64,000 bases of DNA, taken from positions 45,122 through 109,121 of the forward strand of contig JACQCF010000002.1 in assembly GCA_016201795.1 (NCBI GenBank). Direction: 5' to 3'. The position numbers and the translations under genes were made by a program. Below the pieces are notes generated by a model. That model was not told the DNA's origin. It saw only the letters and a list, made by a program, of their open reading frames with translations, and did no database searches. Positions 4,681 to 64,000 of this stretch are shown here, in pieces. Positions within the stretch are counted from its first letter, which is position 1. The number at the start of each line of letters is the position of its first letter. The stretch comes from Candidatus Omnitrophota bacterium. Its GTDB lineage: Bacteria > Omnitrophota > Gorgyraeia > Zapsychrales > Fredricksoniimonadaceae.

Positions 4681-4682
4681 AT

Positions 4683-23070: not shown

Positions 23071-23073
23071 TCC

Positions 23074-39602: not shown

Positions 39603-39639
39603 AAATCCCACTTAAAAACGCGGGATGGAGGGGGAATGC

Positions 39640-41791: not shown

Positions 41792-41805
41792 GGAGCAAAG
41801 ATAGA

Positions 41806-42549: not shown

Positions 42550-42554
42550 AAATT

Positions 42555-43568: not shown

Positions 43569-43574
43569 AAGGAG

Positions 43575-44858: not shown

Positions 44859-44877
44859 ATTCAAAGAGACATGTTTT

Positions 44878-48310: not shown

Positions 48311-48322
48311 GGTATTAGATTT

Positions 48323-49372
48323 ATGAAGCATCATTTGTATTATGAAAGTTTGGATTGGGGTACTTATTGGAAGAATTTTTTCCGTCAGGACAAGGACCGT
48401 TTTTTATGCGCGTTACGGGAAGATTTTGCGACAGAGGATATTTTTTTAACTCGTTCGGGGCGTACCGGTATTATTTTATCGTTAAAGGCGTTTGGTTTGA
48501 CCAGGGAAGATGAAGTTTTGGTGCCGCCGTTTATGAGTACTTGTGTTTTGGACTCGGTCAATCAGGTGGCCATGTCTTCCCGGCGTTTGACGGATCGCAC
48601 TAAGGCGGTTTTATTTTATCACCACTGGGGATACTCTCAGAATTATGCGAAAGCGCAGGAGCTGTTGCGTTCCAGAAAATTATGGGTTATTGAGGATTGT
48701 GCTCATGGGGTGTGGGGTAGATCTCAGGGAATATCGATGGGGGCTTTTGGCCATACCGCTATCTTCTCTTTGTCGAAAATTTTTGAGATGACTTATGCCG
48801 GCGCCTTAAGGATCAATGACGTGGCATTGCTTTCCAGAATAGAAGAAGCGTTAAGTGCTAAGGTTTCATTGAAGGATGCATGCGAATCATTATCGGGGGA
48901 ATTAACATATCTGAGTTTTTATAATACCCCCCTGGCACGACGCAAGGAAACCGACATGTTAGTTGGCATATCAAAATGGTATGCGACGCTTTTAATGTAC
49001 CCTTGTTTGACAACCGTCAGGGGTCGTCTAGCCCGTCATAAGGCAGAATTGCACGAGGTGTTCGGCAACCAGAACAAACATTTTTTGTCTTTATTAAAAA
49101 ATGCCCGTAATCGTTCATTTATGCTGCCGGGCGATGAAGAAGCAACGATGGCGCCGTTATGTTTTCCCATCCTATCGGATGATGAGGGTTTTTTGAACAG
49201 CGTTGATCAATGGCTTAAACAGAGGAATATCTTTACCGGTATTTATCATTTTGACGTCAACCGTTGCATGTTTAACCCGGATTACAAAAAATGCGTGCCT
49301 GTCCCATTGTATGCTTCTTTGTCAGACGGGCTTTATGAAGATTTTATCAGGGATTTCAAAGGGGGATTTTGA
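48323..49372 (+). CDS. Divergent DegT-like PLP-dependent enzyme
   Basis: REDEVLVPPFMSTCV and an FSLSK Lys block resemble the DegT fold, but the protein is shorter and the motifs diverge. Confidence 0.35.
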   Translation: MKHHLYYESLDWGTYWKNFFRQDKDRFLCALREDFATEDIFLTRSGRTGIILSLKAFGLTREDEVLVPPFMSTCVLDSVNQVAMSSRRLTDRTKAVLFYHHWGYSQNYAKAQELLRSRKLWVIEDCAHGVWGRSQGISMGAFGHTAIFSLSKIFEMTYAGALRINDVALLSRIEEALSAKVSLKDACESLSGELTYLSFYNTPLARRKETDMLVGISKWYATLLMYPCLTTVRGRLARHKAELHEVFGNQNKHFLSLLKNARNRSFMLPGDEEATMAPLCFPILSDDEGFLNSVDQWLKQRNIFTGIYHFDVNRCMFNPDYKKCVPVPLYASLSDGLYEDFIRDFKGGF

Positions 49373-50106: not shown

Positions 50107-51717
50107 TTGGACGTGTTTATGGATTTATTTCAAAAATTCAACAGGGTTTATGCGAAGGCAAAGCATTATTGCAGCAGCTTTGTCATAGATCCTCATTCAT
50201 TGAGGTTCATTCGTTATAACAAAAGCATCTGGCGGGATTATAAAAATAAGAATCCGCAGGGCATTGTTTTGTTTTATTATTTTGATATCCCTTCCGCTTT
50301 GATTAGTGGCAGTTATTTTACCAATCTTCTTGTCAAGAAACATAATGCCCAGATCGTGGCGTTTTCTTCCACCCGCAAGGGGTTTCCATGGGGTATTTTC
50401 TATTGGAAGCGCGACATGGTTTATCGTTCGTTTAATACGCAAAAGATTATTGGTACGGTATTAGACCGATCACAGGAATTACGCAAGCAACATATCTACC
50501 AGGATATAATCAAGGGTATCAAGACAAAGAAAGATGTGTACGATATTAAAGTGGATGGTGTTTGGATCGGGGTTGATATCTATGAGACTTATTTGCGGAT
50601 ATGCCGTAAGCCTACCGTAGATTTAGATGATCCTAGGCTTTTTAGAATGATTAAAGAAGGGGTGGGGATTTATTTGTTTTGGCGGGACTATGTCGCCAAG
50701 AATCAGGTCAAGGCCATCGTCGTTAGTCACGATGCTTACATTTACGAAAATATACTTTGTAAAATCGGATATAAAAATAATATTCCTGTTTATATGCCTA
50801 ATATCAGGGGGTTATGGTTTGCCAAAACGGTTTATTCGGCGACTAATCCTTTGTTTAAGAATTATCGTGCAATGTTTAGGAGACTTTCCCTTCAAGAGCA
50901 GGCCAAAAGCTTAGAGCTTGCTAAATGTCAGTTGCAACGTAGGCTGGCAGGAGAGACTGGCGTTGACATGGCCTATTCGCTCAAGTCCGCTTTTAGCTTA
51001 CCCAACAAGTCAGAACAGGTGCTGCGCAAGAGCGATAAGATCAAGGTCCTTATTTGCAGCCACTGTTTTTATGATAATCCCCAAGCGTACGGTGAAATGC
51101 TGTTTATCGACTTTTACGACTGGCTTTGTTTTTTAGGAAAAATATCTCAAGAGACCGATTACGATTGGTATATCAAAATGCATCCAGATCCTTTGCCTGG
51201 GACGGATCAGATTATCCGGGAGATTATTGCCAAATATCCTAAGATCACTTTTATACCTCCTGAAACATCCCATCTTCAACTGGTTTCGGAAGGTATCAAT
51301 TTTGTTTTGACCGCCTATGGGTCAGTCGGGCATGAGCTTGCTATGTTAGGGGTTCAGGTGATTAATGCCGGTTATAATCCGCATTCTGCCTACGATTTTA
51401 ACTGGCACCCGCAGTCTCTTGCTGAGTATGAGAATTACCTTCTACACCTAGATCAATTGAAAAAAGAAATTTCCAAGGAAGATGTTTATGAATTTTATTA
51501 CATGCATTATTACTATACGATCGCTGACGGTCTTTTTTTAAAATCTTACCGTCAATATATCACCGAATCTACAAAGAATCAGGAACCAGGAATTGTTGTT
51601 TATGAACATTTTTTAAAAGACATTAACCGGCAGAAGCATCAAGAAATTTGTACTAGTTTATTGCAATTTATTGAATCTGGAAAGAACTATTATTTAAGCA
51701 GAGGATTAGAAAATTAA
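50107..51717 (+). CDS. Hypothetical protein, possible GT-B-like capsule or nonulosonic-acid transferase
   Basis: 536 aa. The C-terminal half has a Rossmann-like alternation (KIKVLICSH..., FVLTAYGSVGHELAMLGVQVIN) reminiscent of TagF/KpsS-type transferases. No firm motif. Confidence 0.3.
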   Translation: MDVFMDLFQKFNRVYAKAKHYCSSFVIDPHSLRFIRYNKSIWRDYKNKNPQGIVLFYYFDIPSALISGSYFTNLLVKKHNAQIVAFSSTRKGFPWGIFYWKRDMVYRSFNTQKIIGTVLDRSQELRKQHIYQDIIKGIKTKKDVYDIKVDGVWIGVDIYETYLRICRKPTVDLDDPRLFRMIKEGVGIYLFWRDYVAKNQVKAIVVSHDAYIYENILCKIGYKNNIPVYMPNIRGLWFAKTVYSATNPLFKNYRAMFRRLSLQEQAKSLELAKCQLQRRLAGETGVDMAYSLKSAFSLPNKSEQVLRKSDKIKVLICSHCFYDNPQAYGEMLFIDFYDWLCFLGKISQETDYDWYIKMHPDPLPGTDQIIREIIAKYPKITFIPPETSHLQLVSEGINFVLTAYGSVGHELAMLGVQVINAGYNPHSAYDFNWHPQSLAEYENYLLHLDQLKKEISKEDVYEFYYMHYYYTIADGLFLKSYRQYITESTKNQEPGIVVYEHFLKDINRQKHQEICTSLLQFIESGKNYYLSRGLEN

Positions 51718-51720
51718 GGG

Positions 51721-52416
51721 ATGGGAATATTTATGGACATAGCGGTATGCCGTTGGGTTTATAGAAAAAGTAAAGAGCAGCTATGGCGTAAACTGTTCAA
51801 GACCGTCAGGCATGAGCCATGGATGTTTTATGAGGAAATGGAAGTCATAGAGAATCTATTGAAACATTTACGTCCTCAAAATTGCCTTGAGTGGGGAGCA
51901 GGGGGCAGTACCCTGTATTTTCCTCTTTTTTTAAATAAAGACACAAAGTGGTTTACTGTGGAACATGATAAGGATTGGGCATTAAAGATTAAGAATGCCT
52001 CACGCGATAGTCGTGTGCAGGTATTTCATATATCTCCCAATCAGTTTTCTTGGATAGACACTAATGGGGAGGGCGTTTATGCTGATTTGGCGGATTATAT
52101 AGAGTTTCCCCAAAAATTTGGAAAATTTGATTTCATTTTAATTGATGGCCGCGCAAGAAAAGATTGTTTAACGATGGCCCACACGCTTATTAAAGACAAT
52201 GGGGTGGTGGTCCTTCATGATGCGGAAAGACAAGATTATCATGGTCCGTTTGGATCATTTAAATATCAGATTTTGCTTTCTGATTATCATGGATCCGTTA
52301 AATCATTATGGATAGGAAGTAAAGAAAAGAATATACGTGACATCATCGACCCTAAAAAGTATGCAAAGTTATGGTCAACATATGAGGTATTGAGACGATG
52401 GGAAAAAAACAGTTAA
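51721..52416 (+). CDS. Putative SAM-dependent methyltransferase (Methyltransf_24/CmcI-like)
   Basis: CLEWGAGGSTLYF and FILIDG-type motifs. Confidence 0.4.
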   Translation: MGIFMDIAVCRWVYRKSKEQLWRKLFKTVRHEPWMFYEEMEVIENLLKHLRPQNCLEWGAGGSTLYFPLFLNKDTKWFTVEHDKDWALKIKNASRDSRVQVFHISPNQFSWIDTNGEGVYADLADYIEFPQKFGKFDFILIDGRARKDCLTMAHTLIKDNGVVVLHDAERQDYHGPFGSFKYQILLSDYHGSVKSLWIGSKEKNIRDIIDPKKYAKLWSTYEVLRRWEKNS

Positions 52417-53393
52417 CCACTCCGGTTCTTTTTTCCATTTTTCGACGTCCGGATATTACGCAGTCGGTTTTTAATGAGATCAGGAAGGCCCGTCCTCAAC
52501 AATTATTTGTCCGTGCCGATGGTCCTCACCCGCATGTCAAAGGGGAGGCCGAGCTTTGTATGCAAACGCGGGCGATTATCCAACAGGTGGATTGGGATTG
52601 TCAGGTTTATAAAAATTACAGTGACATCAATTTGGGGTGTCGGGTGGCGCTCAGTTCTGCTATCCATTGGTTTTTTAGTCAGGTTGAATCCGGTATTGTG
52701 TTGGAAGACGATTGCCTGCCGTCCCAATCTTTTTTTTGGTTCTGCCAGGAATTACTTGAGCACTACAAGCAAGATGAACGGATCATGCAGATTAGCGGTG
52801 CTAACTATATGCCACAGGTAAAAATTGGGACAGGCACCTATTATTTCTCAAAATTTAATGATGTCTCAGGTTGGGCCACATGGAAAAGAGCATGGAAGTT
52901 CTATGATATGAATATGAGCCAGTATTCTGAGTTTAAAAAACAACGACGAATTTATGATTATCTTGATAACAAAGAACAGGCGGCATGGTTGATGAGTTAT
53001 TTTGAAGAGGCTGTTGAGCTAGACAAATGTGGCGTTTGGTCTACCCAGTGGACCTTTGCTATGGCCAAAAACAATGGGTTAACGATTTGTCCGAATATGC
53101 CATTAACGATACATATGGGTTTTAATGAAGATGGTACGAATTTTCAGAAATCTGCTAGTCTTTATCCGAAAGTTCAGCTACAAGATATAGACCACATTAT
53201 TCATCCGTCGATTATCTTGCCCAGCAGGGAAGCGGACGCATTAAAGTTTGAACTTATCCGTAAGACGGACCCACATGTAAGTTTGGAGTACCGTTGGCGA
53301 AAAGCGTTTAAGGCTTATTTGAAAGAGCATTGCGATCCACAGACATATGAGCGGATTGTAAAATTTCGGCGCAGATTCTTAAGGCAGGCATAA
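52398..53393 (+). CDS. Putative GT-A fold glycosyltransferase (GnT-I/HlpA-like)
   Basis: PVLFSIFRRPDIT...LFVRADGP...VLEDDCLP resembles GnT-I-like bacterial transferases with an EDD motif. Confidence 0.35.
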   Translation: MGKKQLTTPVLFSIFRRPDITQSVFNEIRKARPQQLFVRADGPHPHVKGEAELCMQTRAIIQQVDWDCQVYKNYSDINLGCRVALSSAIHWFFSQVESGIVLEDDCLPSQSFFWFCQELLEHYKQDERIMQISGANYMPQVKIGTGTYYFSKFNDVSGWATWKRAWKFYDMNMSQYSEFKKQRRIYDYLDNKEQAAWLMSYFEEAVELDKCGVWSTQWTFAMAKNNGLTICPNMPLTIHMGFNEDGTNFQKSASLYPKVQLQDIDHIIHPSIILPSREADALKFELIRKTDPHVSLEYRWRKAFKAYLKEHCDPQTYERIVKFRRRFLRQA

Positions 53394-53402
53394 AGGAGAC
53401 AC

Positions 53403-54668
53403 ATGGATGTCATCTATCGTGAAATAACACAATGCAGGATTTGCGGCAATAAGAGGCTGATTCCCATCCTTCATTTGGGTCATCAATCGTTGACGGGTTT
53501 TTTCCCAAAGACGAAAGACCAGGATGTGGCCAGCGGCCCATTGGAATTGGTTAAATGTGATGATAGTCAGGGAGCCAAACATTGCGGTCTTTTGCAGCTT
53601 AAGCATTCCTATGAATCAACCGCCCTCTATGGACAAGGGTACGGGTACCGTTCTTCATTAAACAAGTCCATGGTCAGCCATTTGCATGCTAAGGTTAAGA
53701 AAATAGTGGACATGGAGCTTTTAAAGCCCGGAGATTTAGTTATTGATATCGGAAGCAATGACGGGACGCTTTTAAAAGCATATCCTCATGAGGGGATCAC
53801 ACTTGCGGGCATCGACCCCTCCGCAGGAAGTTTTAAAAAATATTATCCTTCCCACGTTGCTCTTTACCCCGATTTTTTCTCAGCGCAGCTAGTCAAGTCT
53901 GCCTTTGGTTCCCGCAAGGCCAAGGTTATAACATCGATTGCTATGTTTTACGACCTTGAGGCTCCGGTTGATTTTATGCAGCAGGTCTATGAAGTATTAG
54001 ATGATCAGGGCGTATGGGTGTTGGAGCAAAGTTATATGCCGACGATGCTCAAGCGCACCGCCTACGATACCGTTTGTCATGAACATCTGGAATATTATGG
54101 GCTTAAACAGATCCAATGGATGACCGATCGCGTGGGTTTTAAGATCGTCGATGTCGAACTCAATGATATTAATGGGGGCAGTTTCTCGGTGATGTTGTCA
54201 AAGAACCACCGTGCCGGCAAGGAACAGGAAGCTTTGATTGCACGATTGCTGAGGCAAGAAGCGCAGATGGGTTTATCAACGCTAAAGCCGTATGAAGCTT
54301 TTAAGCAGCGGGTGTTTAGGCACCGGGAAGAATTGTGCGATGCCGTTAAGAAAATTAATAATGATGGAAAAAAGATCATAGGCTATGGGGCTTCCACTAA
54401 GGGAAATGTTATTTTGCAGTTTTGTGGATTCATAGAAAAAGACATTCTCTGTATTGCCGAAGTTAATCAGGATAAATTTGGAAGTTTTACCCCGGGTACG
54501 TTAATCCCGATCATTTCGGAAGCGAAGGCAAAGACGATGAAGCCCGACTATATGATGGTGCTTCCCTGGCACTTTAAAGAAAATATCGTTGCCCGGGAGC
54601 AGGCGTACCTTAAATCCGGCGGGAAACTATTTTTCCCTTTGCCTCAACTGGAGATTGTTGATCGATGA
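53403..54668 (+). CDS. NDP-sugar C-methyltransferase (TylCIII/TcaB9-like; Zn-ribbon + MTase + C-methyltransferase domain)
   Basis: N-terminal CRICGN zinc ribbon, the SAM motif VIDIGSNDGTLL and a C-terminal domain typical of sugar C3-methyltransferases. Paralogous to 58346-59560. Confidence 0.6.
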   Translation: MDVIYREITQCRICGNKRLIPILHLGHQSLTGFFPKTKDQDVASGPLELVKCDDSQGAKHCGLLQLKHSYESTALYGQGYGYRSSLNKSMVSHLHAKVKKIVDMELLKPGDLVIDIGSNDGTLLKAYPHEGITLAGIDPSAGSFKKYYPSHVALYPDFFSAQLVKSAFGSRKAKVITSIAMFYDLEAPVDFMQQVYEVLDDQGVWVLEQSYMPTMLKRTAYDTVCHEHLEYYGLKQIQWMTDRVGFKIVDVELNDINGGSFSVMLSKNHRAGKEQEALIARLLRQEAQMGLSTLKPYEAFKQRVFRHREELCDAVKKINNDGKKIIGYGASTKGNVILQFCGFIEKDILCIAEVNQDKFGSFTPGTLIPIISEAKAKTMKPDYMMVLPWHFKENIVAREQAYLKSGGKLFFPLPQLEIVDR

Positions 54669-55606
54669 AAACGGCAATTATTATTGGCTGCGAGGGGCAG
54701 GACGGCAGAATTGCTTTTGATGCTTTGTTAAGCAAGGATTACCGTGTCCTTGGGCTTGGCATTGGCCTGGTGAAGGATTCAGGGATCGGCTGGAATCAAG
54801 AGGTTGATGTCACTGATAAAGACCAGGTGGCGCAGTTGGTAAAATCCGTCAGGGCTGATGAGGTTTATTATTTGGCGGCCTGTCACCAGTCCTCCGAAGA
54901 CCGGTTAAAAGATCATGTGGTGTTATTTCAAGAAAGTTACGCCGTGAATGTGCTGGGGTTGTTGAATTTTCTTGAAGGGATTAAGAGGCATGCATCGGCC
55001 ACAAGGTTATTTTATGCGGGTTCTTCGTTAATTTACGCGGGGACAACAACCCTCGTGCAGGATGAAAGCACGCCTTTTTGTCCGACGTGCATTTATGGGA
55101 TCACCAAGTTGGATGGCCTGTTACTGTGCCGTTATTACCGATCACAGCATGGTATTTTTGCTTCCACAGGTATTTTATATAATCACGAGTCGCCGTACCG
55201 TCAGGAAAATTTTATTTCAACAAAAATTATCAAAGCGGCGATCAATATTAAGCAGGGTCAGCAGGAGGTATTGACATTGGGTGATTTGAATGCTGAAGTT
55301 GATTGGGGTTATGCTCCCGATTATGTGGAAGCGATGCACAGGATTTTAAATATAGATCACGCGGATGAATTTATCATTGCCAGCGGAAAAAAGCACAGCG
55401 TGTGTGATTTTGTTCAGATTGTGTTTGATTGCTTGGATATGGACTGGCAGCCGCATGTGCGTCAGGATGCTAGCCTTGTGACCAGGAAAAGAAAGACTTT
55501 GGTGGGTAACCCACAGAAATTGATAGATTTAACCGGCTGGCATCCGACGGTTGATTTTAGCGGAATGATTAAACTCTTACTGGAAGAGAAAGGTGTGCTT
55601 TTATGA
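54665..55606 (+). CDS. GDP-sugar 4,6-dehydratase family SDR (GMD/DmhA-like)
   Basis: AIIIGCEGQDGRIAF (the GQDG motif of GDP-mannose 4,6-dehydratases) and the catalytic Y-x3-K (YGITK). Confidence 0.6.
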   Translation: MKTAIIIGCEGQDGRIAFDALLSKDYRVLGLGIGLVKDSGIGWNQEVDVTDKDQVAQLVKSVRADEVYYLAACHQSSEDRLKDHVVLFQESYAVNVLGLLNFLEGIKRHASATRLFYAGSSLIYAGTTTLVQDESTPFCPTCIYGITKLDGLLLCRYYRSQHGIFASTGILYNHESPYRQENFISTKIIKAAINIKQGQQEVLTLGDLNAEVDWGYAPDYVEAMHRILNIDHADEFIIASGKKHSVCDFVQIVFDCLDMDWQPHVRQDASLVTRKRKTLVGNPQKLIDLTGWHPTVDFSGMIKLLLEEKGVLL

Positions 55607-56370
55607 CCATGCCTTACAAAACATTGATTTTTATTCCCACTTATAATGAAGTGGAAAATGTGCGGGTGATTTATGAACAAATCAAGAAGCTTAATCTAGA
55701 TGCGGATATATTATTTTGTGACGATCATTCACCGGATGGGACAGGCGGCGTCATTGATGAGATCTGTGTTCAGGATCAGCAGGTATTTGCTATTCATCGG
55801 CAAGGGAAGCTAGGGATAGGCACCGCGCATGTGCGGGGTATTGATTGGGCGTATGCGCAAGGGTATCAACAACTCATAACCATGGACTGCGATTTTTCCC
55901 ATTCGCCCTTTTATATTAAGAAGTTTATTGAGTTAGCCGAGGCGGGTGATGTGATTATAGGTTCCCGCTATATTCAAGAGGATAGTTTGAAGGAGTGGAA
56001 TTTTTATCGTAAATTCTTGACCCACCTGGGACATTTCCTGACGAAGGTATTATTAAAGATGCCTTATGATGCCACAGGGGCCTTCCGGTTATACCGGTTA
56101 GATAAAATTCCCCAAGGTATTTTTCATTTGCCGCACTCTAAGGGATACTCCTTCTTTTTTGAAAGCCTATATATTTTAATGCTCAATGGACTAACCATCA
56201 AAGAATTCTCTATTCATTTGCCTGCGCGGACGTACGGACATTCCAAAATGACGCTAAAGGGAGCTTATCAAAGTCTTTTACATTTATTACAGATGTATTG
56301 TACAACACTGTTTAGGCGGCATGAATTTATTTACATGGGTTTAACGTCGGAGCAGACGGTAAAATCTTAA
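55603..56370 (+). CDS. Family 2 glycosyltransferase, Dpm1-like polyprenol-phosphate sugar synthase
   Basis: [13 protein letters not shown]...[10 protein letters not shown] and the DCDFSH motif. Confidence 0.7.
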
Positions 56371-56380
56371 AGGATCACTG

Positions 56381-57490
56381 ATGATCGCGTGTATTAATCC
56401 AAAAGCGCAATATTTGTCCTACCAGGCGGAGATTGACCATGCGGTAGCCCGTGTGTTTCAAGAAGGTAGGTATATTTTGGGCAAAGAGGTGCAACTTTTC
56501 GAGGAGGAATTTGCCTGCTATGTCGGTGTGAAGCATGCTATTGGTGTTGGCAGCGGCACGGAAGCGTTACATATGGCGCTGGTCGCTTGCGGGGTGGGTA
56601 AAGGTGATGAAGTGATCACTGTTTCTCATACAGCTGTGGCAACGGTGGCGGCTATTGTGTTAAGCGGTGCTGTACCGGTTTTGGTGGATATAGAGCCCTC
56701 CACATATAACATGGATCCTCATCAGCTGAAAACAAGTATTACGCCCAAGACCAAGGCTATTATTGTGGTGCATCTTTATGGACACCCGGCGGATATGACG
56801 CCTATTATCCAAATTGCCCATGAGCACGGGATTAAGGTGATTGAGGATTGCGCGCAGGCGCACGGTGCAAGGTATGAAGGTAAACGGGTGGGGGCCTGGG
56901 GCGATATGGCCTGTTTTAGTTTTTATCCGACGAAGAATTTGGGTGCTATTGGCGACGGCGGGGCGGTGGTGACCAATAATGAACATTTGGCTGATCAATG
57001 CCGTCTGCTGCGCGAGTACGGCTGGTCTAAAGAGCGCGTAAGCCAGATGGCGGGATGGAATTCCCGTTTGGATGAACTGCAGGCAGCAATTTTACGGGTT
57101 AAATTAAGATATCTGGATAGAGATAATCAATTAAGACAACAGTTGGCTGCCTGCTACAATCAATCATTGGTTCATACGGGACTGGTGCTTCCTTTGGAAA
57201 AATCAAATTGTAAGCACGTGTATCATCTTTATGTGGTGCGCAGTCAAAAGCGTGATGAGTTAAAAGAAGCCTTATCGACCCAAGGAGTTCAGACGATGAT
57301 TCATTATTCTGTCCCTGTGCATTTACAGCCCGCCTACAAAGGGTGCGTAAGGGTCGCCCATGAGTTAAAGGAAACCAAGCGTATTGTTAGCGATATTTTA
57401 TCTTTGCCTTTGTATCCGCAATTATCTCTTATCGACGTTAAAGAGGTGGCAGAGACTATTGGGAAGATAACGGCAAGGGGGAGTCGTTGA
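56381..57490 (+). CDS. DegT/DnrJ/EryC1/StrS family aminotransferase
   Basis: [18 protein letters not shown] and the Lys block [17 protein letters not shown]. Confidence 0.8.
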
Positions 57491-58359
57491 TGAAACGGAT
57501 AGTGAAATTAATAGTAAAGAAAATATTAGGAGAATCTTTATTTCAAAGGCTAAAGAGAGCTGTTGAAATATTGTTATTTAGACCGGTTTTTTTTGAAGGC
57601 GTTTATAAAAATTTTGCCGAAATCAAAGACAGCACCCCTTATAATGCTGGAAACTATTTAGCCAAATCTTTTGAATATGCAAAGAAGAAATACCAATTGG
57701 CCGTAGATAACCTTTCTTATATACCCCCTGCCTTTAAGGATAGTGGACTCAGGAATATACTTCCTTTGTTGGCAGCCTCATTGCGTACAGAAAAACAAAA
57801 AGTACATATTTTAGACTTCGGTGGTGGTCTGGGGGCTTCCTACATTGATCTGTTAGGGCAACTCAAAGGTTTAGAAGTCGTTTATCACATAGTTGACTTA
57901 GAAGAAAATAGAAAAGAAATACAATCGGATAGCTCCTACACCAAATCAGATAATTTTAATTTCCATACTTCTGTGGAGAACATCGCTCATTTGCTATTTG
58001 ACATCATTTATTTAGGTTCCAGCCTTCAATATATTGAGAACTACGTAGCGTTGATTTCCAGATTGGCGGAAATGAAGCCCAGGTATATTTTCTTATCACA
58101 CACATTGGTAGTTGACGGGACCATTGAAACTTTCGCAACCGTTCAGGTGAATGTTCAAGGAAAGAGGTTGAAGAATTGGATTTTTAATTATGGTGAAATC
58201 GAAGAACGGTTTAAGGCCCAAGGCTATGGTTTAATTTACCGTTCTGCTAATTATGATGAATATTTGAATTTAGATAATTATAATGAACAATTTCGTAAGT
58301 ATCGTTCTGCGAATTTATTATTTTTGAGATTAGAAAGGACTTTTCATGAGTCACTGTAA
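57487..58359 (+). CDS. Putative SAM-dependent methyltransferase (TIGR04325-like)
   Basis: [12 protein letters not shown] glycine-rich motif and the IVDLEEN acidic motif II. Confidence 0.4.
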
Positions 58360-59560
58360 AATATGCACTTCTCCGACCAATGATATTATCACTTTCGGGG
58401 GGATGCCCGTGGCGAATGGTTTTATTAATGTGGTTGGGCAAGATGAATTTGTTTTCGATTTGACCGTTTCTTTTTGTACCCATTGTTTCATGGTCCAGTT
58501 AAAAGAGACTGTACCACCGGAAAAAATGTTTAATGATCACTACCATTTTATGTCATCGACCTCTCAAGGCATGGCCGTCCACTTTGAGGGCAATGCCAAA
58601 GAGATCATTGATCGGTTAGCAGGCAGGCCAGATTCCTTTGTTGTGGAATTAGGATGCAATGATGGCCCCATGCTAAAACACATTGCGGCAAAAGGTATTC
58701 GTCATTTAGGGGTTGAACCGTCCGGTAACGTGGCGGATTTGGCACAGAAAAATAATGTCAGGGTCTTAAAGGAATTTTTTAATCAGAAGACCGCCGCACA
58801 GATCGTCCAGAAAGACGGTCAGGCCGATGTCATTTGCGGTTCCAACGTGTTTTGCCATATCGAGGATATTCATTCCGTGTTCACCGGTATCAGTGTTTTG
58901 CTTAAAGAGGACGGCTATGTGTATTTCGAAGATCCGTATTTAATGGATATTGTTGAACAATCTTCTTTTGATCAAATTTACGATGAGCATGTTTTTTATT
59001 ATTCCGGCTTATCTGTACGTGAGCTGGCCAAGCGTCATCAGTTAGAGTTGGTAGATATGGTGCATCAGGATGTCCACGGCGGGTCAATGCGCTATTACCT
59101 TAAGAAAGGGGCGGGGTATACCGTGCATCCGCGGGTCGAAGAATTCATTGCTCGGGAAAAATCCCTTAAGTTGGATCAGCCGGCCGGGTACGCTTCTTTT
59201 AAGGATCACGTGAATCAAATCTGTCACCAGTTGCGCCACACTCTTGAAGAGATCAAGCATAAAGGTAGTCGCATTGTCGGTTATGGGGCTACTTCCAAAA
59301 GTACGACCCTGTTAAATTACGCCAAGATTGGACCGGCGCTGGTGGATTATATCTCTGACAACACTCCCTATAAGATCAATAAATTTACGCCCGGCATGCA
59401 TATTCCCATCAGATCTTATGAGACATTTTTGGAGGATCAGCCAGCTTACACTTTATTATTAGCTTGGAACCATCGCCGGGAAATATTGGAAAAAGAAAAA
59501 GAGTATCGCCGCAAGGGGGGGAAATTTATTACCTTTTTCCCCGCGGTGACTATTGAATAA
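58346..59560 (+). CDS. NDP-sugar C-methyltransferase (TylCIII/TcaB9-like), paralog 2
   Basis: CKICTS...CTHCF zinc ribbon, VVELGCNDGPML motif I and a C-terminal C-methyltransferase-like domain. Confidence 0.6.
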   Translation: MSHCKICTSPTNDIITFGGMPVANGFINVVGQDEFVFDLTVSFCTHCFMVQLKETVPPEKMFNDHYHFMSSTSQGMAVHFEGNAKEIIDRLAGRPDSFVVELGCNDGPMLKHIAAKGIRHLGVEPSGNVADLAQKNNVRVLKEFFNQKTAAQIVQKDGQADVICGSNVFCHIEDIHSVFTGISVLLKEDGYVYFEDPYLMDIVEQSSFDQIYDEHVFYYSGLSVRELAKRHQLELVDMVHQDVHGGSMRYYLKKGAGYTVHPRVEEFIAREKSLKLDQPAGYASFKDHVNQICHQLRHTLEEIKHKGSRIVGYGATSKSTTLLNYAKIGPALVDYISDNTPYKINKFTPGMHIPIRSYETFLEDQPAYTLLLAWNHRREILEKEKEYRRKGGKFITFFPAVTIE

Positions 59561-59563
59561 AGG

Positions 59564-60016
59564 ATGCGGGTTATGATTCAGGGCATTGAAATCAAAAAAC
59601 TCATCGCTCATCAAGACGAACGAGGCTTCTTTTGCGAACTGATCCGTACCTCCGACGAATTTTTTAAAGGGCAGTTTGGCCAGTTAAGCCATTCGATGAC
59701 GCATACGGGTGTCTTCAAGGCATGGCACATGCATCATAAGCAAACCGATTGGATTTGTGCTATTGCCGGAGATATCAAATTGGGCCTGTACGATATGCGT
59801 AAGGGCTCCTCAACCCACGGCCAGTTGAATGAGATTTTGATGGGCCAAACTCATGGCCGCGTGGTGGTTAAAATTCCGCCGGGGATTGCGCACGGGTATA
59901 AGATTATCCAGGGGCCCGCTCATATCATTTATGTGATGAATAGGGAATATGATCCCAGCGATGAAATTCGTATCCCCCATGATGACGCTACCATTGGATA
60001 CGATTGGACAGTATGA
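59564..60016 (+). CDS. RmlC-like cupin sugar-nucleotide 3,5-epimerase / ketoisomerase
   Basis: ERGFFCE...WHMHHKQTDWICAIAGDIKLGLYDMR matches the RmlC-family cupin core. About 150 aa. Confidence 0.55.
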   Translation: MRVMIQGIEIKKLIAHQDERGFFCELIRTSDEFFKGQFGQLSHSMTHTGVFKAWHMHHKQTDWICAIAGDIKLGLYDMRKGSSTHGQLNEILMGQTHGRVVVKIPPGIAHGYKIIQGPAHIIYVMNREYDPSDEIRIPHDDATIGYDWTV

Positions 60017-60951
60017 TGAAAAATTTTTATGCCGGTAAACGGATTTTGGTTACGGGTGCGACGGGATATTTAGGTTCTTGCGTCCTGCGCGCTTTGAGTG
60101 ACTGGTCCTGCGAGGTCAAAGTCCTGCAGACGGATATACGCGATGAAAATATTTGGCCGGGCCTGTTAAAGGATGTAGATATTATTTTTCATTTTGCGGC
60201 GCAAACCAGTGCGTATGTAGCCAATGAAGATCCGGTCAACGACGTTAAAGTCAATGTTCTGCCGGTCGCGGCCTTGCTTGCGGCATGTTCAAAGCATCAT
60301 CTTCGGCCGGATATTATTTTTTCAGGGACTGTCACTCAGGCCGGATTGACACAGCATTGGCCTGTCAATGAGTCGGTTAAAGACGATCCCTTGACGGTTT
60401 ACGATATTCATAAACTGACGGTCGAGCATTATCTGCGTTATTATAGCCGTCAGCTAGGCGGCAGGGCGGTGACCTTGCGTTTAGCCAACCTTTATGGGCC
60501 AGGCCCAAGTGCGAGTAGTTCCGATCGAGGCATTCTCAATAAGATGGTTGAGAAGGCATTACAAGGCAAACCGTTGACGGTTTATGGGGATGGAAATTTT
60601 ATCCGGGATTATATTTTTATTGATGATGTGGCCCGTGCTTTTTTAGCGGCCGGAGCTCATATAGATGCTTTGAAAGGAAATTATTATGTGATTGGCAGCG
60701 GCAAGGGCCATACGGTGGCGGATATGGCGCAAATAGTTGCGCAAGAGGCGGCGCGACACACAGGTAAGTCTGTGGCGGTTGAACATGTGCCGGCGCCAGA
60801 GGGGCTATCACCCATTGAATTTAGAAATTTTGTTGCGGACACCGCATCTTTTAGCTCTTTAACGGGTTGGCAGGCCGAAGTTGACTTGACCGAAGGAGTT
60901 CGTCGAACTATTCAAACCATGGAAACATTGATGCGACAGAGGCAAAAATGA
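60004..60951 (+). CDS. NAD-dependent epimerase/dehydratase family SDR (putative 4-reductase)
   Basis: ILVTGATGYLGSCV Rossmann motif and Y-x3-K (YDIHK). Confidence 0.65.
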   Translation: MDSMMKNFYAGKRILVTGATGYLGSCVLRALSDWSCEVKVLQTDIRDENIWPGLLKDVDIIFHFAAQTSAYVANEDPVNDVKVNVLPVAALLAACSKHHLRPDIIFSGTVTQAGLTQHWPVNESVKDDPLTVYDIHKLTVEHYLRYYSRQLGGRAVTLRLANLYGPGPSASSSDRGILNKMVEKALQGKPLTVYGDGNFIRDYIFIDDVARAFLAAGAHIDALKGNYYVIGSGKGHTVADMAQIVAQEAARHTGKSVAVEHVPAPEGLSPIEFRNFVADTASFSSLTGWQAEVDLTEGVRRTIQTMETLMRQRQK

Positions 60952-61907
60952 ACATACTGATTTTGGGAGGAGCTGGATTTATTGGCAGCAACTTGGTCAG
61001 GCGCTGTTTAGCTGACCGCAGCAATAAGGTTACGGTTGTTGATTCATTAGACCAACGGCTTAAAAGTACGAAAGAACATTTAAAGGCCGTTAGCGCGGAT
61101 ATTGAATTTATCCAAGGCGATATCAGGGATGCTGCCTTAATGCAGGAGGTGGTCGTCGGGAAAGAAGTGATTTTTAATTGTGCGGCCCAAACGTCCCATC
61201 CGTTATCATTGACCGACCCGCTTTATGATGCACAGGTCAATTGCCTGGGGAGCCTGACCGTGCTGGAAGCCGTCAAAAACAGAAACCCTAAAGCCATGAT
61301 CGTTTATACATCCAGTAGTACGGTCATCGGCAAATCCCAGGGTGATGTAGTGGATGAGTCGCACGGGGAGCGCCCTTTGGATATTTATTCCGCCAATAAA
61401 GGCGTGGTCGAGAAATACCATTGGATTTATCACCATGTGCATGGGCTCAAGACGTTGTCGATCCGCTTCGCGAATCTTTTCGGTCCGTATGGCAAGGGGT
61501 ATCCCGAATTCGGATTTATCAATTATTTTATTGCCTTAGCCCGGCAGGACAAACAGATCCAGATATTCGGCGATGGTCTTCAGCAGAGAAACGTCATGTA
61601 TGTGCAAGATGCTGTTGACTTATTGTACGGTTGTGTTTCCCATCCGCCTATTTTTGGTGATATTTATTTCGCGGCTCACCGACAACATTATTCCGTGACT
61701 CAGATCGCTGCTGAGATCGTTTCTGTTTTCGGCCGGGGAAAGATTGTCCATGTGCCATGGCCGGATTTGCGCCAGAAGATTGAGATTGATAATGTCGTCA
61801 TCTCTTCTGCAAAGCTTAATCGCGTCATTGATTTTCAGCCCAGGTATAACTTAAGGGAAGGGCTCCTCAGGACCGAAGAGATATTTGAAAAGGAGGCAGT
61901 ATCGTGA
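60948..61907 (+). CDS. NAD-dependent epimerase/dehydratase family SDR
   Basis: ILILGGAGFIGSNLV motif and Y-x3-K (YSANK). Confidence 0.65.
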   Translation: MNILILGGAGFIGSNLVRRCLADRSNKVTVVDSLDQRLKSTKEHLKAVSADIEFIQGDIRDAALMQEVVVGKEVIFNCAAQTSHPLSLTDPLYDAQVNCLGSLTVLEAVKNRNPKAMIVYTSSSTVIGKSQGDVVDESHGERPLDIYSANKGVVEKYHWIYHHVHGLKTLSIRFANLFGPYGKGYPEFGFINYFIALARQDKQIQIFGDGLQQRNVMYVQDAVDLLYGCVSHPPIFGDIYFAAHRQHYSVTQIAAEIVSVFGRGKIVHVPWPDLRQKIEIDNVVISSAKLNRVIDFQPRYNLREGLLRTEEIFEKEAVS

Positions 61908-62857
61908 ATATTTGTATTACCGGCGCGGCAGGACATATCGGTTCTGCCTTAATTCGCAACATATCTTTGCCGTCTGTCGATAAAGTGCATCTGGTGGATA
62001 ATTTGATGACGCAGCGCTACGCCTCTTTATTTAATCTGCCGGAGGGTGTCAATTATGTTTTTCATGAAATAGATGTCATGTCTGATCAGATGAGGGAAGT
62101 CATTGGCGATTGTGACGTGCTTATCCATCTAGCGGCGGTGACGGATGCGCAGGCGAGTTTCCATCAGGTTGAACTGGTCGAAAAAGTCAATAAGCTGGGA
62201 CTGGAACACGTGGCCAAAATTTGTGCCCAGGAACAATGCGCTTTATTATTTCCCTCATCGACTAGCGTTTATGGCGTTTCCCAGGGCATTGTTGATGAGA
62301 ATTGTAGCGAAGCGGCCTTAAAACCTCAAAGCCCTTACGCGGAATCGAAACTTTACGGAGAAAAACTCCTAAAGACTTTATCCAAAGAAGAAGGATTACG
62401 TTTTGTTACCTTTAGGTTGGGGACGATTTTCGGCTATTCCATCGGCATGCGTTTTCATACAGCCGTGAATAAATTTATTTGGCAGGCATCCCAGGGAAAA
62501 GAAATAACGGTTTGGCAGACGGCTTTAAATCAGAAACGGCCTTATTGTGATCTGAATGATTGCGTGCAGGCCATTCAATATGTTTTGAAGGAAGATATCT
62601 TTGACGGGGAAATTTATAATATCCTGACAACTAATTTGACCGTCGCCCAAGTGATTGAAGCCATCAAGAAGTATGTGCCCCATTTGGCTGTTAAATTTGT
62701 TGATTCAGTCCTTATGAACCAATTGTCTTATGATGTCTGTACCAAGAAATCCCTGGCGCGCGGGTTTCGTTATACAGGGCAGTTAGACCAGCGCGTTCGG
62801 GAAACCATTGAGCAATTAAGAAATTTGAACCCTTCGACAGTCGGTATCCGTTTATGA
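61904..62857 (+). CDS. NAD-dependent epimerase/dehydratase family SDR
   Basis: ICITGAAGHIGSAL motif and Y-x3-K (YAESK). Confidence 0.65.
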   Translation: MNICITGAAGHIGSALIRNISLPSVDKVHLVDNLMTQRYASLFNLPEGVNYVFHEIDVMSDQMREVIGDCDVLIHLAAVTDAQASFHQVELVEKVNKLGLEHVAKICAQEQCALLFPSSTSVYGVSQGIVDENCSEAALKPQSPYAESKLYGEKLLKTLSKEEGLRFVTFRLGTIFGYSIGMRFHTAVNKFIWQASQGKEITVWQTALNQKRPYCDLNDCVQAIQYVLKEDIFDGEIYNILTTNLTVAQVIEAIKKYVPHLAVKFVDSVLMNQLSYDVCTKKSLARGFRYTGQLDQRVRETIEQLRNLNPSTVGIRL

Positions 62858-64000
62858 GCGATCATTTCAAAGTGGGGATTGTTATTCCTAATTATGGCCG
62901 TCTGGAATATTTGAAAGAAGCCGTTGACAGCGTCCTTGGCCAGAGCTATGAAAATTTTGAGCTGCTGATTAGCGACGATCATTCCCCTGATCCGGCCATT
63001 GGCACGTATTTAAGTCAAATCAAAGATCCCAGGGTCAAATGGGTGATCAACCGGACGAATGTGGGGACAACCAAGAATTATGATCAAGGGGTCAGGATGT
63101 TGGGCAAGGACATTACCTGGGCGCTGATCTTGGACAATGATGATGTTTTGGATAAAGACTATATCCAGGCCATGGTGCAGGCTCACATTCAAAACCGCCA
63201 AGCAAAAGTTATTTGCGGCCACCAGATTTTTGTTAATGCACATAAGCAAATGATCAAGAAAGACGGAGGATATCCTGAGCATGAAACCGCCCAAGATTAT
63301 TTGTTGCTCAGATGCCGAGGGCAGCGGGATTTAAGGTCATCCAATGTTTTTTTTGATTTAAAGCGTTTTTTTGAGGTGGGCGGGTACCCACCGTTTGATT
63401 CCGGGATGGGGACGGATACAGTATTGATTTTTGCTCTGGCATTTGATAATCAGGTGGGCTTTGCCCCGGCTGCGCGAATTTATATCAGGGTGCATGAAGA
63501 GGCGGAATCTATGACCACGGATCATCTGTGGGAGAAATTATTGTCTATGAAACAAATGCAGGATTATTGCCTGGGTGTATATAATCATCATCCACCATAC
63601 TTCTCACAACATAAAAGACAGGTATTGGCCGCGCTTAGGCAGCACGTGAAGCTGCAGGGCTCTGCGTTGTTAGTTAAGCGCTATCGGGAAATTGTGTCAA
63701 CCCTTCCTGCTGGCGTTGCCCGCAAAACATTACAAGAGATGCTGCAGCGATGCCGCAAGGAAAAGATAAAGGTATCATGGCAATTTTTAATGCTGGCAGG
63801 ATTTTTTAATATTCTTGGTGTTCATGTGGAAGAGTTGCTGGCGTATCAGTTTTTACGTCGTTGTAAAAATATTTTTATTTTTAAGGTCACATTAAGATGT
63901 GCTTACGTCCTTTTGACGCATTGTTGCATGGTGTGTTGCTCTTTGATCGACAAGCGTAGTGGCGGAGTTTTATTATTGCGGCTTGATGCGCTGGGCGACT
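62854..64000 (+). CDS. Family 2 glycosyltransferase; the 3' end was not reached in the window
   Basis: VGIVIPNYGRLEYL...LISDDHSPDP and the LDNDD (DxD) motif. ATGA overlap with the upstream SDR. The frame stays open to the window end. Confidence 0.65.
   Translation, partial: MSDHFKVGIVIPNYGRLEYLKEAVDSVLGQSYENFELLISDDHSPDPAIGTYLSQIKDPRVKWVINRTNVGTTKNYDQGVRMLGKDITWALILDNDDVLDKDYIQAMVQAHIQNRQAKVICGHQIFVNAHKQMIKKDGGYPEHETAQDYLLLRCRGQRDLRSSNVFFDLKRFFEVGGYPPFDSGMGTDTVLIFALAFDNQVGFAPAARIYIRVHEEAESMTTDHLWEKLLSMKQMQDYCLGVYNHHPPYFSQHKRQVLAALRQHVKLQGSALLVKRYREIVSTLPAGVARKTLQEMLQRCRKEKIKVSWQFLMLAGFFNILGVHVEELLAYQFLRRCKNIFIFKVTLRCAYVLLTHCCMVCCSLIDKRSGGVLLLRLDALGD

Follow-up and report, generated by a model that had tools for sequence, protein, structure and literature searches.

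Two predicted C-methyl-sugar cassettes in tandem within a surface-glycan operon of an Omnitrophota bacterium

The DNA analysed here is a stretch of 64,000 nucleotides from a Candidatus Omnitrophota bacterium (assembly GCA_016201795.1, contig JACQCF010000002.1, positions 45,122 to 109,121), referred to below as the window. At 53403-62857 it carries ten open reading frames (ORFs), and these 9.5 kb are probably best understood as two independent nucleotide-sugar cassettes, placed head to tail in one long surface-glycan operon. Cassette A would make a GDP-6-deoxy-3-C-methyl-hexose and cassette B a dTDP-3-amino-3-C-methyl-3,6-dideoxyhexose; we put the probability of this reading, products included, at about 60%. 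The division of the region at 56370/56381, with cassette A occupying 53403-56370 and cassette B 56381-62857, is well supported.

The ten ORFs all lie on the + strand, at the coordinates reported in the first-pass annotation of this DNA, and are tightly packed, with junctions of -14 to +10 bp:

53403-54668, +: CMT1, a sugar C-methyltransferase with a zinc ribbon, an S-adenosylmethionine (SAM) domain and a C-terminal domain (PF08421, PF13489, PF08484)
54665-55606, +: GMDL, an extended short-chain dehydrogenase/reductase (SDR) of 313 residues derived from GDP-mannose 4,6-dehydratase (GMD) (PF16363 GDP_Man_Dehyd, 4.7e-61)
55603-56370, +: GT2a, a small family 2 glycosyltransferase (GT2; 255 residues) resembling polyprenyl-phosphate-sugar synthases (PF00535)
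56381-57490, +: DegT, a DegT-family pyridoxal-phosphate aminotransferase resembling C3-aminotransferases (PF01041, 5.6e-125)
57487-58359, +: a TIGR04325-family SAM methyltransferase (97.5 bits; cutoff 80)
58346-59560, +: CMT2, a sugar 3-C-methyltransferase like TcaB9, KijD1 and EvaC (PF08484, 2.7e-54; PF08421, 2e-14)
59564-60016, +: an RmlC-family cupin of 150 residues (PF00908, 1.1e-22, 81 bits)
60004-60951, +: SDR1, an extended SDR with a short N-terminus like that of Fcl and RmlD (PF01370, in the ~1e-40 class)
60948-61907, +: SDR2, a GalE-like extended SDR of NAD+ type (PF01370)
61904-62857, +: SDR3, an extended SDR of NAD+ type, a core partner of CMT2 and DegT (Pfam SDR)

The family assignments, the state of each motif, the two-cassette layout and the gene associations are all read directly from the window and from two collections of related loci, and the Pfam matches lie far outside what chance would give. 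To build the first collection, GTDB was scanned at one genome per species with a profile of the GMDL family, and the best 80 of at least 588 confirmed stretches were analysed; these come from Patescibacteria, Omnitrophota, Verrucomicrobiota, Bacteroidota, Planctomycetota, Pseudomonadota, Cyanobacteria, Chloroflexota, Nocardia, Nonomuraea and the archaeon Methanoregula. The second came from a metagenome scan seeded with CMT2 and also numbers 80 loci; 36 of these are 'long', with at least 6 kb after CMT2, and a closer group of 23 has a CMT2 at least 55% identical.

In the GMDL-seeded collection, a CMT1 orthologue (median identity 54%) lies directly upstream of GMDL, in the same orientation, in 53 of 59 loci, the 59 being those that have upstream sequence and a GMDL of at least 40% identity. 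A GT2a orthologue follows GMDL directly in 26/76 loci and is present somewhere in the locus in 35/76. No other gene family is common to more than seven of the best 80 loci, and orthologues of DegT, CMT2, the cupin and SDR1-3 are found in none of them. The 80 CMT2-seeded metagenome loci, in turn, contain no cassette-A genes. There the commonest order is CMT2-cupin-SDR1-SDR2-SDR3-DegT, or the same with DegT in first place. DegT is present in 33/36 long loci (20/23 of the closer group), SDR3 in 32/36 (21/23), SDR2 in 24/36 (21/23), SDR1 in 22/36 (19/23) and the cupin in 16/36 (14/23); these counts overstate independence, to the cost of our reading, because some of the metagenome contigs are near-duplicates and not separate lineages. 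The GTDB loci are one per species. A single conserved module across 53.4-62.9 kb, as the first-pass annotation had it, is thus rejected: cassettes A and B never share a locus among the 160 related loci sampled, and none of these holds both in tandem as the operon described here does.

The single module had also been likened to a particular pathway, a Campylobacter-type GDP-6-deoxy-heptose or GDP-deoxyhexose set in which GMDL is a DdahA-like dehydratase, the cupin is DdahB/MlghB-like, the SDRs are DdahC/MlghC-like reductases, and GDP-heptose comes from genes in 'island 1', with the methyltransferases adding decoration. Three things speak for it. The best solved relative of SDR3, albeit a weak one (4e-28), is PDB entry 6vo6, probably the Campylobacter jejuni GDP-heptose C4-dehydrogenase Cj1427. 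Island 1, the lipopolysaccharide (LPS) core and O-antigen region at 1-19 kb, has HddA-, HddC- and GmhB-like genes along with GT9 and Wzy_C genes, and the next gene downstream of SDR3 encodes a GT9 heptosyltransferase-like domain. However, GMDL lacks the glutamate of a dehydratase (see below) and keeps company across genomes with CMT1 and GT2a. The cupin and SDRs travel apart from it, with a TcaB9-like C-methyltransferase, a C3-type aminotransferase and rmlA-rmlB instead of GDP-heptose genes. Nor does island 1 fit as the supplier, since its HddA-like and HddC-like proteins score far below the curated cutoffs (158 bits against 600 and 149 against 300) and it lies 35 kb away behind housekeeping genes. 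Contradicted as it is by the co-occurrence data, the Campylobacter pathway is a highly improbable description of the region. Its component families are nonetheless real, with the cupin matching PF00908 at 1.1e-22 and each of the three SDRs at 60004-62857 matching Pfam at ~1e-40, and the suggestion of an aminated, C-methylated sugar is a plausible one.

Cassette A and a probable GDP-linked C-methyl sugar

CMT1 is a sugar C-methyltransferase of the MtmC/TcaB9 family. It matches PF08484 at 1.7e-50 and PF08421 at 9e-13, and it aligns over its full length with the solved enzymes, the best PDB match being the D-mycarose 3-C-methyltransferase MtmC (4rv9, 7e-56), with TcaB9 at 2e-49. The zinc ligands C11, C14, C52 and C61 are all kept in its orthologues. 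The active-site motif reads C-H-E-H: the glutamate and histidine are present, whilst a cysteine (Cys225) replaces Tyr222 of TcaB9 in 57/59 orthologues. The tyrosine, glutamate and histidine (Y222, E224 and H225 of TcaB9) are active-site residues according to studies of TcaB9 mutants. CMT1 and CMT2 had been described as a pair of paralogous TylCIII/TcaB9-like C-methyltransferases. The family holds for both, in full architecture, and the worry that they might be generic O- or N-methyltransferases without the C-terminal domain is removed by the presence of PF08484 in each (1.7e-50 and 2.7e-54). Close paralogy does not hold; at 26% identity they are distant homologues, not recent paralogues.

The partner of CMT1, GMDL, carries the motif GCEGQDG and is closest in the PDB to the GMD of Pseudomonas aeruginosa (1rpn, 4.4e-48), with matches to RMD, the known GDP-4-keto-6-deoxymannose 4-reductase, at 1.6e-15 (2pk3) and 1.4e-14 (6x3b), so that it falls outside the RMD clade by sequence. 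The catalytic set of the P. aeruginosa GMD is T126/E128/Y150/K154 (PMC3539893), and its T-S-E aligns to S-S-L in GMDL, the glutamate (E128) being replaced by Leu122. This replacement is a property of the family: in the 120 closest homologues (at least 49% identical) the glutamate column holds L in 68, H in 45, R in 3, Q in 2, I in 1 and E in 1. In the same set, Ser120, Tyr144, Lys148 and the GxxGxxG motif are nearly invariant, and the GMD-type N173-H174-E175-S176 and R179 are kept in at least 118/120. GMDL is shorter than the canonical GMDs found beside the cassette in other genomes (313 residues against ~340), has the Arg-rich 'RR loop' after beta-2 replaced or deleted relative to 1rpn, and scores 183.6 bits against a TIGR01472 equivalog cutoff of 415, which places it below GMD membership.

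Because a leucine sits in place of the catalytic glutamate, GMDL is not expected to be a dehydratase; the loss argues against dehydration. The first-pass annotation, which had called it a GQDG-motif 4,6-dehydratase, was thus right about the motif and wrong about the activity. A 4,6-dehydratase was sought amongst all four SDRs of the region and is ruled out, as none has the aspartate or glutamate (the motifs of SDR1-3 are GTVT, SSST and SSTS). We propose that GMDL is the 4-ketoreductase for a GDP-4-keto-6-deoxy-C-methyl-hexose and that it may work like RMD despite lying outside that clade. Weak 4-reductase activity has been described in characterised GMDs (bioRxiv 10.1101/854612).

The third member, GT2a, is a gene that the first-pass annotation did not mention. 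Its best PDB match is the Pyrococcus dolichol-monophosphate-mannose synthase (DPMS) 5mlz (3.9e-19), an enzyme that uses GDP-mannose, with ArnC (9hwj) at 3.7e-5; weak NCBIfam matches are to PgfS, ArnC, AglJ and dolichyl-phosphate hexose transferase. The DD...D and DxD motifs are kept, and no hydrophobic segments are predicted in its 255 residues.

The gene neighbourhoods of the cassette in other genomes point to GDP-mannose as the source of the sugar. Canonical GMDs (~340 residues, with QAS[ST]SE[LM][FY]G) are found in ~20 of the best 80 GMDL loci, often in the order GMD-CMT1-GMDL; rmlA is found in 2 of the 80 and rmlB in 4. The GMD is directly upstream in Patescibacteria, Oligoflexia, Omnitrophota and Nocardia/Nonomuraea, and nearby in Methanoregula. 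On an Azospirillum oryzae plasmid (NZ_CP054615.1, 128558-132459), ManC is followed by a CMT1 orthologue (53%) and then by a 317-residue protein, labelled 'GDP-mannose 4,6-dehydratase', that is really of RMD type (2pk3 1.5e-46, 6x3b 9e-45); the GMDL slot is thus filled there by a known GDP-4-keto-6-deoxymannose 4-reductase. In Phyllobacterium zundukense, ManB, ManC and an RgpF-family gene are the plasmid-borne neighbours of a CMT1 orthologue. 3-C-Methyl-D-rhamnose (D-evalose) is a component of O-antigens of Azorhizobium caulinodans, Phyllobacterium trifolii and Burkholderia andropogonis, and no experimentally assigned genes for the synthesis of an O-antigen C-methyl sugar were found in the searchable literature.

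From these observations we infer substrates, step order, regiochemistry and products. In cassette A, a canonical GMD encoded outside the window would make GDP-4-keto-6-deoxy-D-mannose, which CMT1 would C-methylate at a carbon adjacent to the ketone, C3 being the likeliest. C4 would then be reduced by GMDL, a paralogue of GMD in which the dehydration base is gone but Ser/Tyr/Lys and the GMD sugar-nucleotide motif remain, and the DPMS-like GT2a would transfer the C-methyl sugar to polyprenyl phosphate or straight to an acceptor. The likely product is a GDP-6-deoxy-3-C-methyl-hexose, of which GDP-linked 3-C-methyl-D-rhamnose would be the simplest example.

Several observations count against this route. 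No canonical GMD or ManC is found within the 64-kb window, and in ~70% of cassette-A loci there is no canonical GMD within 10 kb. The alignment also shows that RMD keeps the glutamate at the GMD-equivalent position, so loss of this residue is no proof of a reductase role for GMDL. Finally, CMT1 alone does not fix the nucleotide, because homologues at ~50% identity pair in Streptomyces with rfbC and an oxidoreductase. The scarcity of nearby GMDs could be explained if cassette A works with no 4,6-dehydratase at all: GMDL would be a C4 oxidoreductase acting on GDP-mannose, CMT1 would methylate the keto sugar, and GMDL would reduce it again to give GDP-3-C-methyl-mannose. GMDL has lost only the dehydration base, with Ser/Tyr/Lys and the substrate motif retained; Cj1427 provides a precedent for a C4-dehydrogenase that releases a 4-keto GDP-sugar (PMC10680097); and 3-C-methyl-D-mannose is a natural sugar, found in an atypical Helicobacter pylori O-antigen (PMC12961483). 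However, this would leave unexplained the strong enrichment of canonical GMD beside the cassette, often upstream of CMT1. The Azospirillum slot, moreover, holds a reductase of the 6-deoxy pathway, and where a known O-antigen precedent shares its genus with a CMT1 orthologue, it is the 6-deoxy sugar. The non-deoxy route is therefore unlikely, though it deserves some weight, and the 6-deoxy route is preferred.

The pairing of CMT1 with GMDL is strong from the GMDL side only, since plasmid-borne CMT1 homologues at 50-55% identity are not always beside GMDL. On a plasmid of Streptomyces angustmyceticus (NZ_CP104318.1), a CMT1 homologue (55%) stands ahead of rfbC and a gene for an NAD(P) oxidoreductase, beside nonribosomal peptide synthetase genes. 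The CMT1 subfamily is thus also used in a natural-product context, probably with a dTDP-L-sugar. A metagenome-assembled Methanoregula genome (OY781161.1) has two CMT1-GMDL copies ~1.9 Mb apart on one chromosome, one of them with GT2a; the cassette is thus both present and duplicated in a methanogen.

Cassette B and a probable dTDP-linked amino-C-methyl sugar

CMT2 has the full three-domain architecture, with a class-I SAM domain between PF08421 and PF08484, and matches KijD1 (5t6b, 1.2e-104) and TcaB9 (3ndi, 2.4e-100) end to end at ~50% identity. Both are 3-C-methyltransferases of 3-amino-4-keto sugars. The zinc ligands C4, C7, C44 and C47 are conserved and Y212-D-E214-H215 is invariant in 80 homologues. 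The wider family is large, with more than 7800 proteins at E<=1e-60 (from Nitrospinota, Omnitrophota, Patescibacteria and Desulfobacterota), which bear the JGI name 'methylation protein EvaC'.

The DegT aminotransferase has 7b0d as its best PDB match, and its top named matches are DesV (2oga, 2e-101), QdtB (3frk, 7e-99) and WbpE (4e-83), against 7e-65 for PerA, 5e-56 for ArnB and 5e-40 for WecE amongst the C4-type enzymes. Amination at C3 is thus plausible.

The cupin is less easily placed. It belongs to the RmlC family (RmlC enzymes at 3e-14 in the PDB and EvaD, 1ofn, at 2e-7), scoring 70.5 bits against a TIGR01221 cutoff of 155.75. His55 and Tyr123 are conserved, the position of RmlC Lys73 is Asp or Gln, and the protein ends at the equivalent of RmlC residue 157, before the aspartate of the His-Asp dyad; in RmlC we take the catalytic residues to be a histidine with an aspartate partner, Lys73 and Tyr133. 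An FdtA-type 3,4-ketoisomerase was considered, and by sequence the cupin lies outside that family: there is no Pfam match to PF05523 (FdtA/QdtA), hhalign gives 4.6e-37 against RmlC-type and 1.7e-7 against FdtA-type clusters, and only an H-x-H is in common, the W-H-x-H of the cupin being in register with the H-x-H of FdtA. In function the cupin could be either an epimerase or a 3,4-ketoisomerase.

Of the three SDRs, SDR1 stands somewhat apart. It is the one SDR whose alignment with the GDP-fucose synthase and RmlD models begins at the N-terminus, and the remaining models pick it up from about residue 37 onwards; this suggests an NADPH-dependent 4-ketoreductase. Its best PDB matches are GalE-like (3.7e-31), and Thr109, Tyr133 and Lys137 are conserved with no dehydratase Asp/Glu. 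SDR2 and SDR3 both have the aspartate after beta-2 that is typical of NAD+-type enzymes. SDR2 has a GGAGFIG motif, invariant Asp32, Tyr147 and Lys151, and SSST at the position of the RmlB TDE; with a 4-epimerase (6wjb, 7.5e-31) and CDP-tyvelose 2-epimerase (2e-25) as its PDB matches, it could be either an epimerase or an oxidoreductase. SDR3, in which Asp32-Asn33, Ser118/Thr120, Tyr145 and Lys149 are conserved, matches 6vo6 at 4.2e-28 (the runner-up being at 2.5e-15) and is proposed to be a sugar C4 (or C3) dehydrogenase. The remaining gene, for the TIGR04325-family methyltransferase, has homologues in just 2/80 cassette-B loci and is thus a local, lineage-specific insertion into the cassette.

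A dTDP-sugar supply lies close by. An overlapping contig (locus L162, 1711-5829) continues the operon beyond the window with, in order, a GT2-GT9 fusion, a GT2, RmlA and the N-terminus of RmlB; the RmlA scores 440.7 bits against TIGR01207 (cutoff 360.65), and the rmlA-rmlB pair is 2.8 kb downstream of cassette B. No other nucleotidyltransferase is conserved beside cassette B in the CMT2-seeded loci. Distant marine versions of the cassette, which adjoin rmlB-rmlA, have in addition a true FdtA (PF05523, 128.9 bits), a full RmlC (222 bits) and a hexapeptide acyltransferase.

In the route we favour, rmlA-rmlB would supply dTDP-4-keto-6-deoxy-D-glucose, and the cupin as ketoisomerase and/or an NAD+-type SDR would convert this to a 3-keto or 3,4-diketo sugar. 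DegT would aminate C3, SDR3 would supply or restore the 4-keto group, and CMT2 would methylate C3. SDR1 would then reduce C4 of the sugar, which may first have been epimerised; the TIGR04325 enzyme may add a further methyl. The likely product, as judged from the relatives of these enzymes, is a dTDP-3-amino-3-C-methyl-3,6-dideoxyhexose, and the more conjectural part of the scheme is the sequence of its steps, together with the parts played by SDR2, SDR3 and the cupin. Some features sit uneasily with it. The cassette has more SDRs than the route strictly requires, and the cupin is of the RmlC type and not of the FdtA type. rmlA-rmlB abut the cassette in just 8/40 loci with upstream sequence, and similarity is no sure guide to regiochemistry within the DegT family.

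Amination could instead fall at C4. CMT2 would then act at C3 of dTDP-4-keto-6-deoxyglucose, the cupin would epimerise, DegT would aminate C4 and the SDRs would serve other sugars, giving a 4-amino-4,6-dideoxy-3-C-methyl sugar of the kansosamine or sibirosamine type. Sugars with a 4-amino-3-C-methyl pattern occur in mycobacterial glycolipids and in sibiromycin. The attraction of this scheme is its simplicity, as the RmlB product is used directly and no 4-keto group has to be regenerated, and DegT does score well against C4 enzymes (275 bits with the PseC model; PerA at 7e-65). Yet the top named relatives of DegT are C3-type, with E-values 20-40 orders better than those of the C4 enzymes, CMT2 is closest to the C-methyltransferases of 3-amino sugars, and a distant version of the cassette has the FdtA 3,4-ketoisomerase. 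The linkage of SDR3 to CMT2, which is as tight as that of DegT to CMT2, would also be left without explanation. Amination at C4 is, on balance, quite unlikely.

The starting sugar can also be questioned. If SDR3 or SDR2 were to oxidise a UDP- or GDP-sugar, cassette B would make a non-deoxy amino-C-methyl sugar from something other than a dTDP-6-deoxy precursor. There is no dehydratase amongst the three SDRs, SDR3 resembles a putative C4-dehydrogenase, and the adjacency of rmlA-rmlB is a minority arrangement (8/40). Against this, the loci share no further nucleotidyltransferase beside the cassette, whereas rmlA-rmlB turn up repeatedly and lie in this operon. All the characterised enzymes close to CMT2, DegT and the cupin act on dTDP-6-deoxy sugars. 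A non-deoxy product is very unlikely, and the dTDP-3-amino-3-C-methyl-3,6-dideoxyhexose is retained as the predicted product of cassette B.

Surroundings in the operon and the window

The cassettes belong to a run of co-directional genes that begins at ~37.2 kb and continues past the end of the window at 64 kb, as does the gene cluster itself. No terminator-like sites lie between the genes (20 sites in the scan against 14.3 +/- 3.3 in shuffled sequence, all intragenic), and the promoter and terminator scan of the region gave no signal exceeding chance. Pieces identical to the window DNA are present in sequencing runs SRR12113409 and SRR12113410, and GMDL is 100% identical to an NCBI entry from Candidatus Omnitrophica/Omnitrophota, the host genome being metagenome-assembled. 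The first gene after cassette B is cut by the window end:

62854-64000, +: a fusion of GT2 and GT9-like (heptosyltransferase-like) domains, 719 residues in full as read from the overlapping contig

Upstream in the same operon are pseudaminic-acid-type genes (PseB-, PseC-, PseF-, PseG/H- and PseI-like) and further methyltransferases. The pseudaminic-acid-type set (39625-49372) is interrupted by a Gfo/Idh/MocA oxidoreductase and DegT pair (42555-44858) and has a FemAB-like acyltransferase and a partial DegT-like protein after it; the insertion and the FemAB-like neighbour suggest a modified nonulosonic acid. Directly upstream of cassette A, 50107-51717 (536 residues) and 52398-53393 (331 residues) encode soluble proteins that match no Pfam family at E<0.01 and have few homologues in related loci. 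They may be unrecognised glycosyltransferases.

At 2153-6580 in island 1, a B12-binding radical-SAM protein (2153-3685) comes directly before an HddA-like GHMP kinase, an HddC-like nucleotidyltransferase and a DegT aminotransferase, and may perform further radical chemistry, of the C-methylation type, on an activated sugar. Two large proteins of the same island (7707-9380 and 10746-12623), each with ~6 hydrophobic segments and no Pfam match, are candidates for polymerases or for GT-C-like transferases of lipid-linked sugars, which could use a polyprenyl-phosphate sugar made by GT2a. Elsewhere in the window, adjacent ORFs of 328 and 332 residues at 22084-24072 have nearly the same start (MPQIRKDFIVNRW... 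and MPQLRRDPIVGRW...), as though duplicated in tandem. A single 1480-residue ORF at 24594-29036 fuses a full-length AcrB-type resistance-nodulation-division (RND) transporter (PF00873) to an OEP domain, an unusual joining of inner- and outer-membrane parts of an efflux pump.

Comparison with known systems

Every protein described here belongs to a known superfamily and the proposed chemistry recombines known steps, so that nothing is categorically new. What is new is, first, a subfamily of GMD-derived SDRs lacking the glutamate and tightly coupled to a Cys-variant C-methyltransferase, often with a DPMS-like GT2; second, a cassette of TcaB9 type for the C-methylation of amino sugars, carried in the surface-glycan loci of many lineages outside the actinomycetes; and third, the tandem placing of the two cassettes in one operon. 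Antibiotics are the textbook source of branched C-methyl sugars, and to our knowledge only a handful of these sugars are known from cell surfaces (virenose, 3-C-methyl-rhamnose and 3-C-methyl-mannose). The view that such sugars are rare beyond antibiotic pathways is true of the chemistry characterised so far; the genes are another matter, as both cassettes are widespread in environmental genomes. Since both are common in uncultivated phyla, C-methyl sugars may be far more ordinary in environmental cell envelopes than glycan databases suggest.

Cassette A offers concrete candidate genes for 3-C-methyl-6-deoxyhexose, a known sugar with no assigned O-antigen genes, and cultured carriers of its genes are available in Azospirillum, Phyllobacterium, Nocardia and Polynucleobacter. 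The large GMDL family is annotated automatically as 'GDP-mannose 4,6-dehydratase' despite scoring below the curated NCBIfam cutoff, and would, given the missing glutamate, be misannotated. Cassette B leads us to expect a new amino-C-methyl sugar at the cell surface and supplies TcaB9-like enzymes of non-actinomycete origin. A more ambitious picture is possible, though doubtful. In it, three genes would suffice to make cassette A a complete system, passed on horizontally and spread from candidate phyla to methanogenic archaea, in which a non-dehydrating GMD paralogue serves as C4 oxidoreductase or reductase, a Cys-variant enzyme methylates, and a DPMS-like enzyme loads the sugar onto lipid phosphate for extracytoplasmic glycans; cassette B would place a 3-amino-3-C-methyl-3,6-dideoxyhexose on the cell surface. 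That class of sugar is so far known to us only in its 2-deoxy form, from actinomycete antibiotics.

No description of either cassette was found in the searchable literature. The nearest account is of a proposed route to virenose (6-deoxy-3-C-methyl-D-gulose) in Coxiella burnetii, worked out in silico only, with GMD (CBU_0689), a TylCIII-like protein (CBU_0691) and GMER (CBU_0688) (PMC3539893). It shares with cassette A a 4-keto-6-deoxy intermediate derived from GDP-mannose, a methyltransferase of the TylC3 family, reduction at C4 and a destination, in Coxiella, as an LPS sugar. The reductase of cassette A, however, is a GMD paralogue without the glutamate, whereas that of Coxiella is an epimerase-reductase of the GMER/Fcl type, and cassette A also differs in its DPMS-like GT2 and in the C-H-E-H motif of CMT1. 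The pathway to GDP-D-rhamnose (GMD and RMD), and by extension to the D-evalose O-antigens, has the same predicted precursor and final 4-ketoreduction, and evalose is the simplest outcome of combining GMD, CMT1 and a 4-reductase. GMDL is nevertheless nearer to GMD (4e-48) than to RMD (1.6e-15), and no gene assigned to evalose synthesis in Azorhizobium, Phyllobacterium or Burkholderia was found in the searchable literature.

For cassette B, the closest parallels are the TcaB9, KijD1 and EvaC pathways for tetronitrose, kijanose and epivancosamine. CMT2 is ~50% identical to their C-methyltransferases over its full length, with the same zinc site and Y-D-E-H, and the likeness extends to a C3-type aminotransferase (EvaB/KijD2), an RmlC-like cupin (EvaD), a reductase (EvaE) and a supply through RmlA and RmlB. 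Unlike the EvaB-EvaC-EvaD-EvaE and TcaB9 sets of actinomycete antibiotics, cassette B has two extra NAD+-type SDRs and no EvaA-type 2,3-dehydratase, so that its sugar should keep the 2-hydroxyl. It is also set in a surface-glycan operon of Gram-negative and candidate-phyla bacteria and not in a natural-product cluster. The QdtA/QdtB and FdtA/FdtB pathways, which make dTDP-3-amino-3,6-dideoxy-glucose and -galactose for S-layers and O-antigens, likewise have a small cupin and an aminotransferase related to DegT (QdtB, 7e-99), and the distant versions of cassette B share with them a true FdtA and a hexapeptide acyltransferase. These pathways have neither a C-methyltransferase nor a step that regenerates the 4-keto group, however, and the cupin of the window is of the RmlC family instead of FdtA. 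The capsular heptose set of C. jejuni (Cj1427, DdahA, DdahB/MlghB and DdahC/MlghC) again arranges a cupin and SDRs around a 4-keto sugar nucleotide. The operon described here has no GDP-heptose dehydratase, its supply genes are rmlA and rmlB, its core is a C-methyltransferase with an aminotransferase, and its GMDL and its cupin and SDRs are not inherited together; the GMDL of cassette A goes with CMT1 and GT2a, whilst the cupin and SDRs of cassette B go with CMT2, DegT and rmlA-rmlB.

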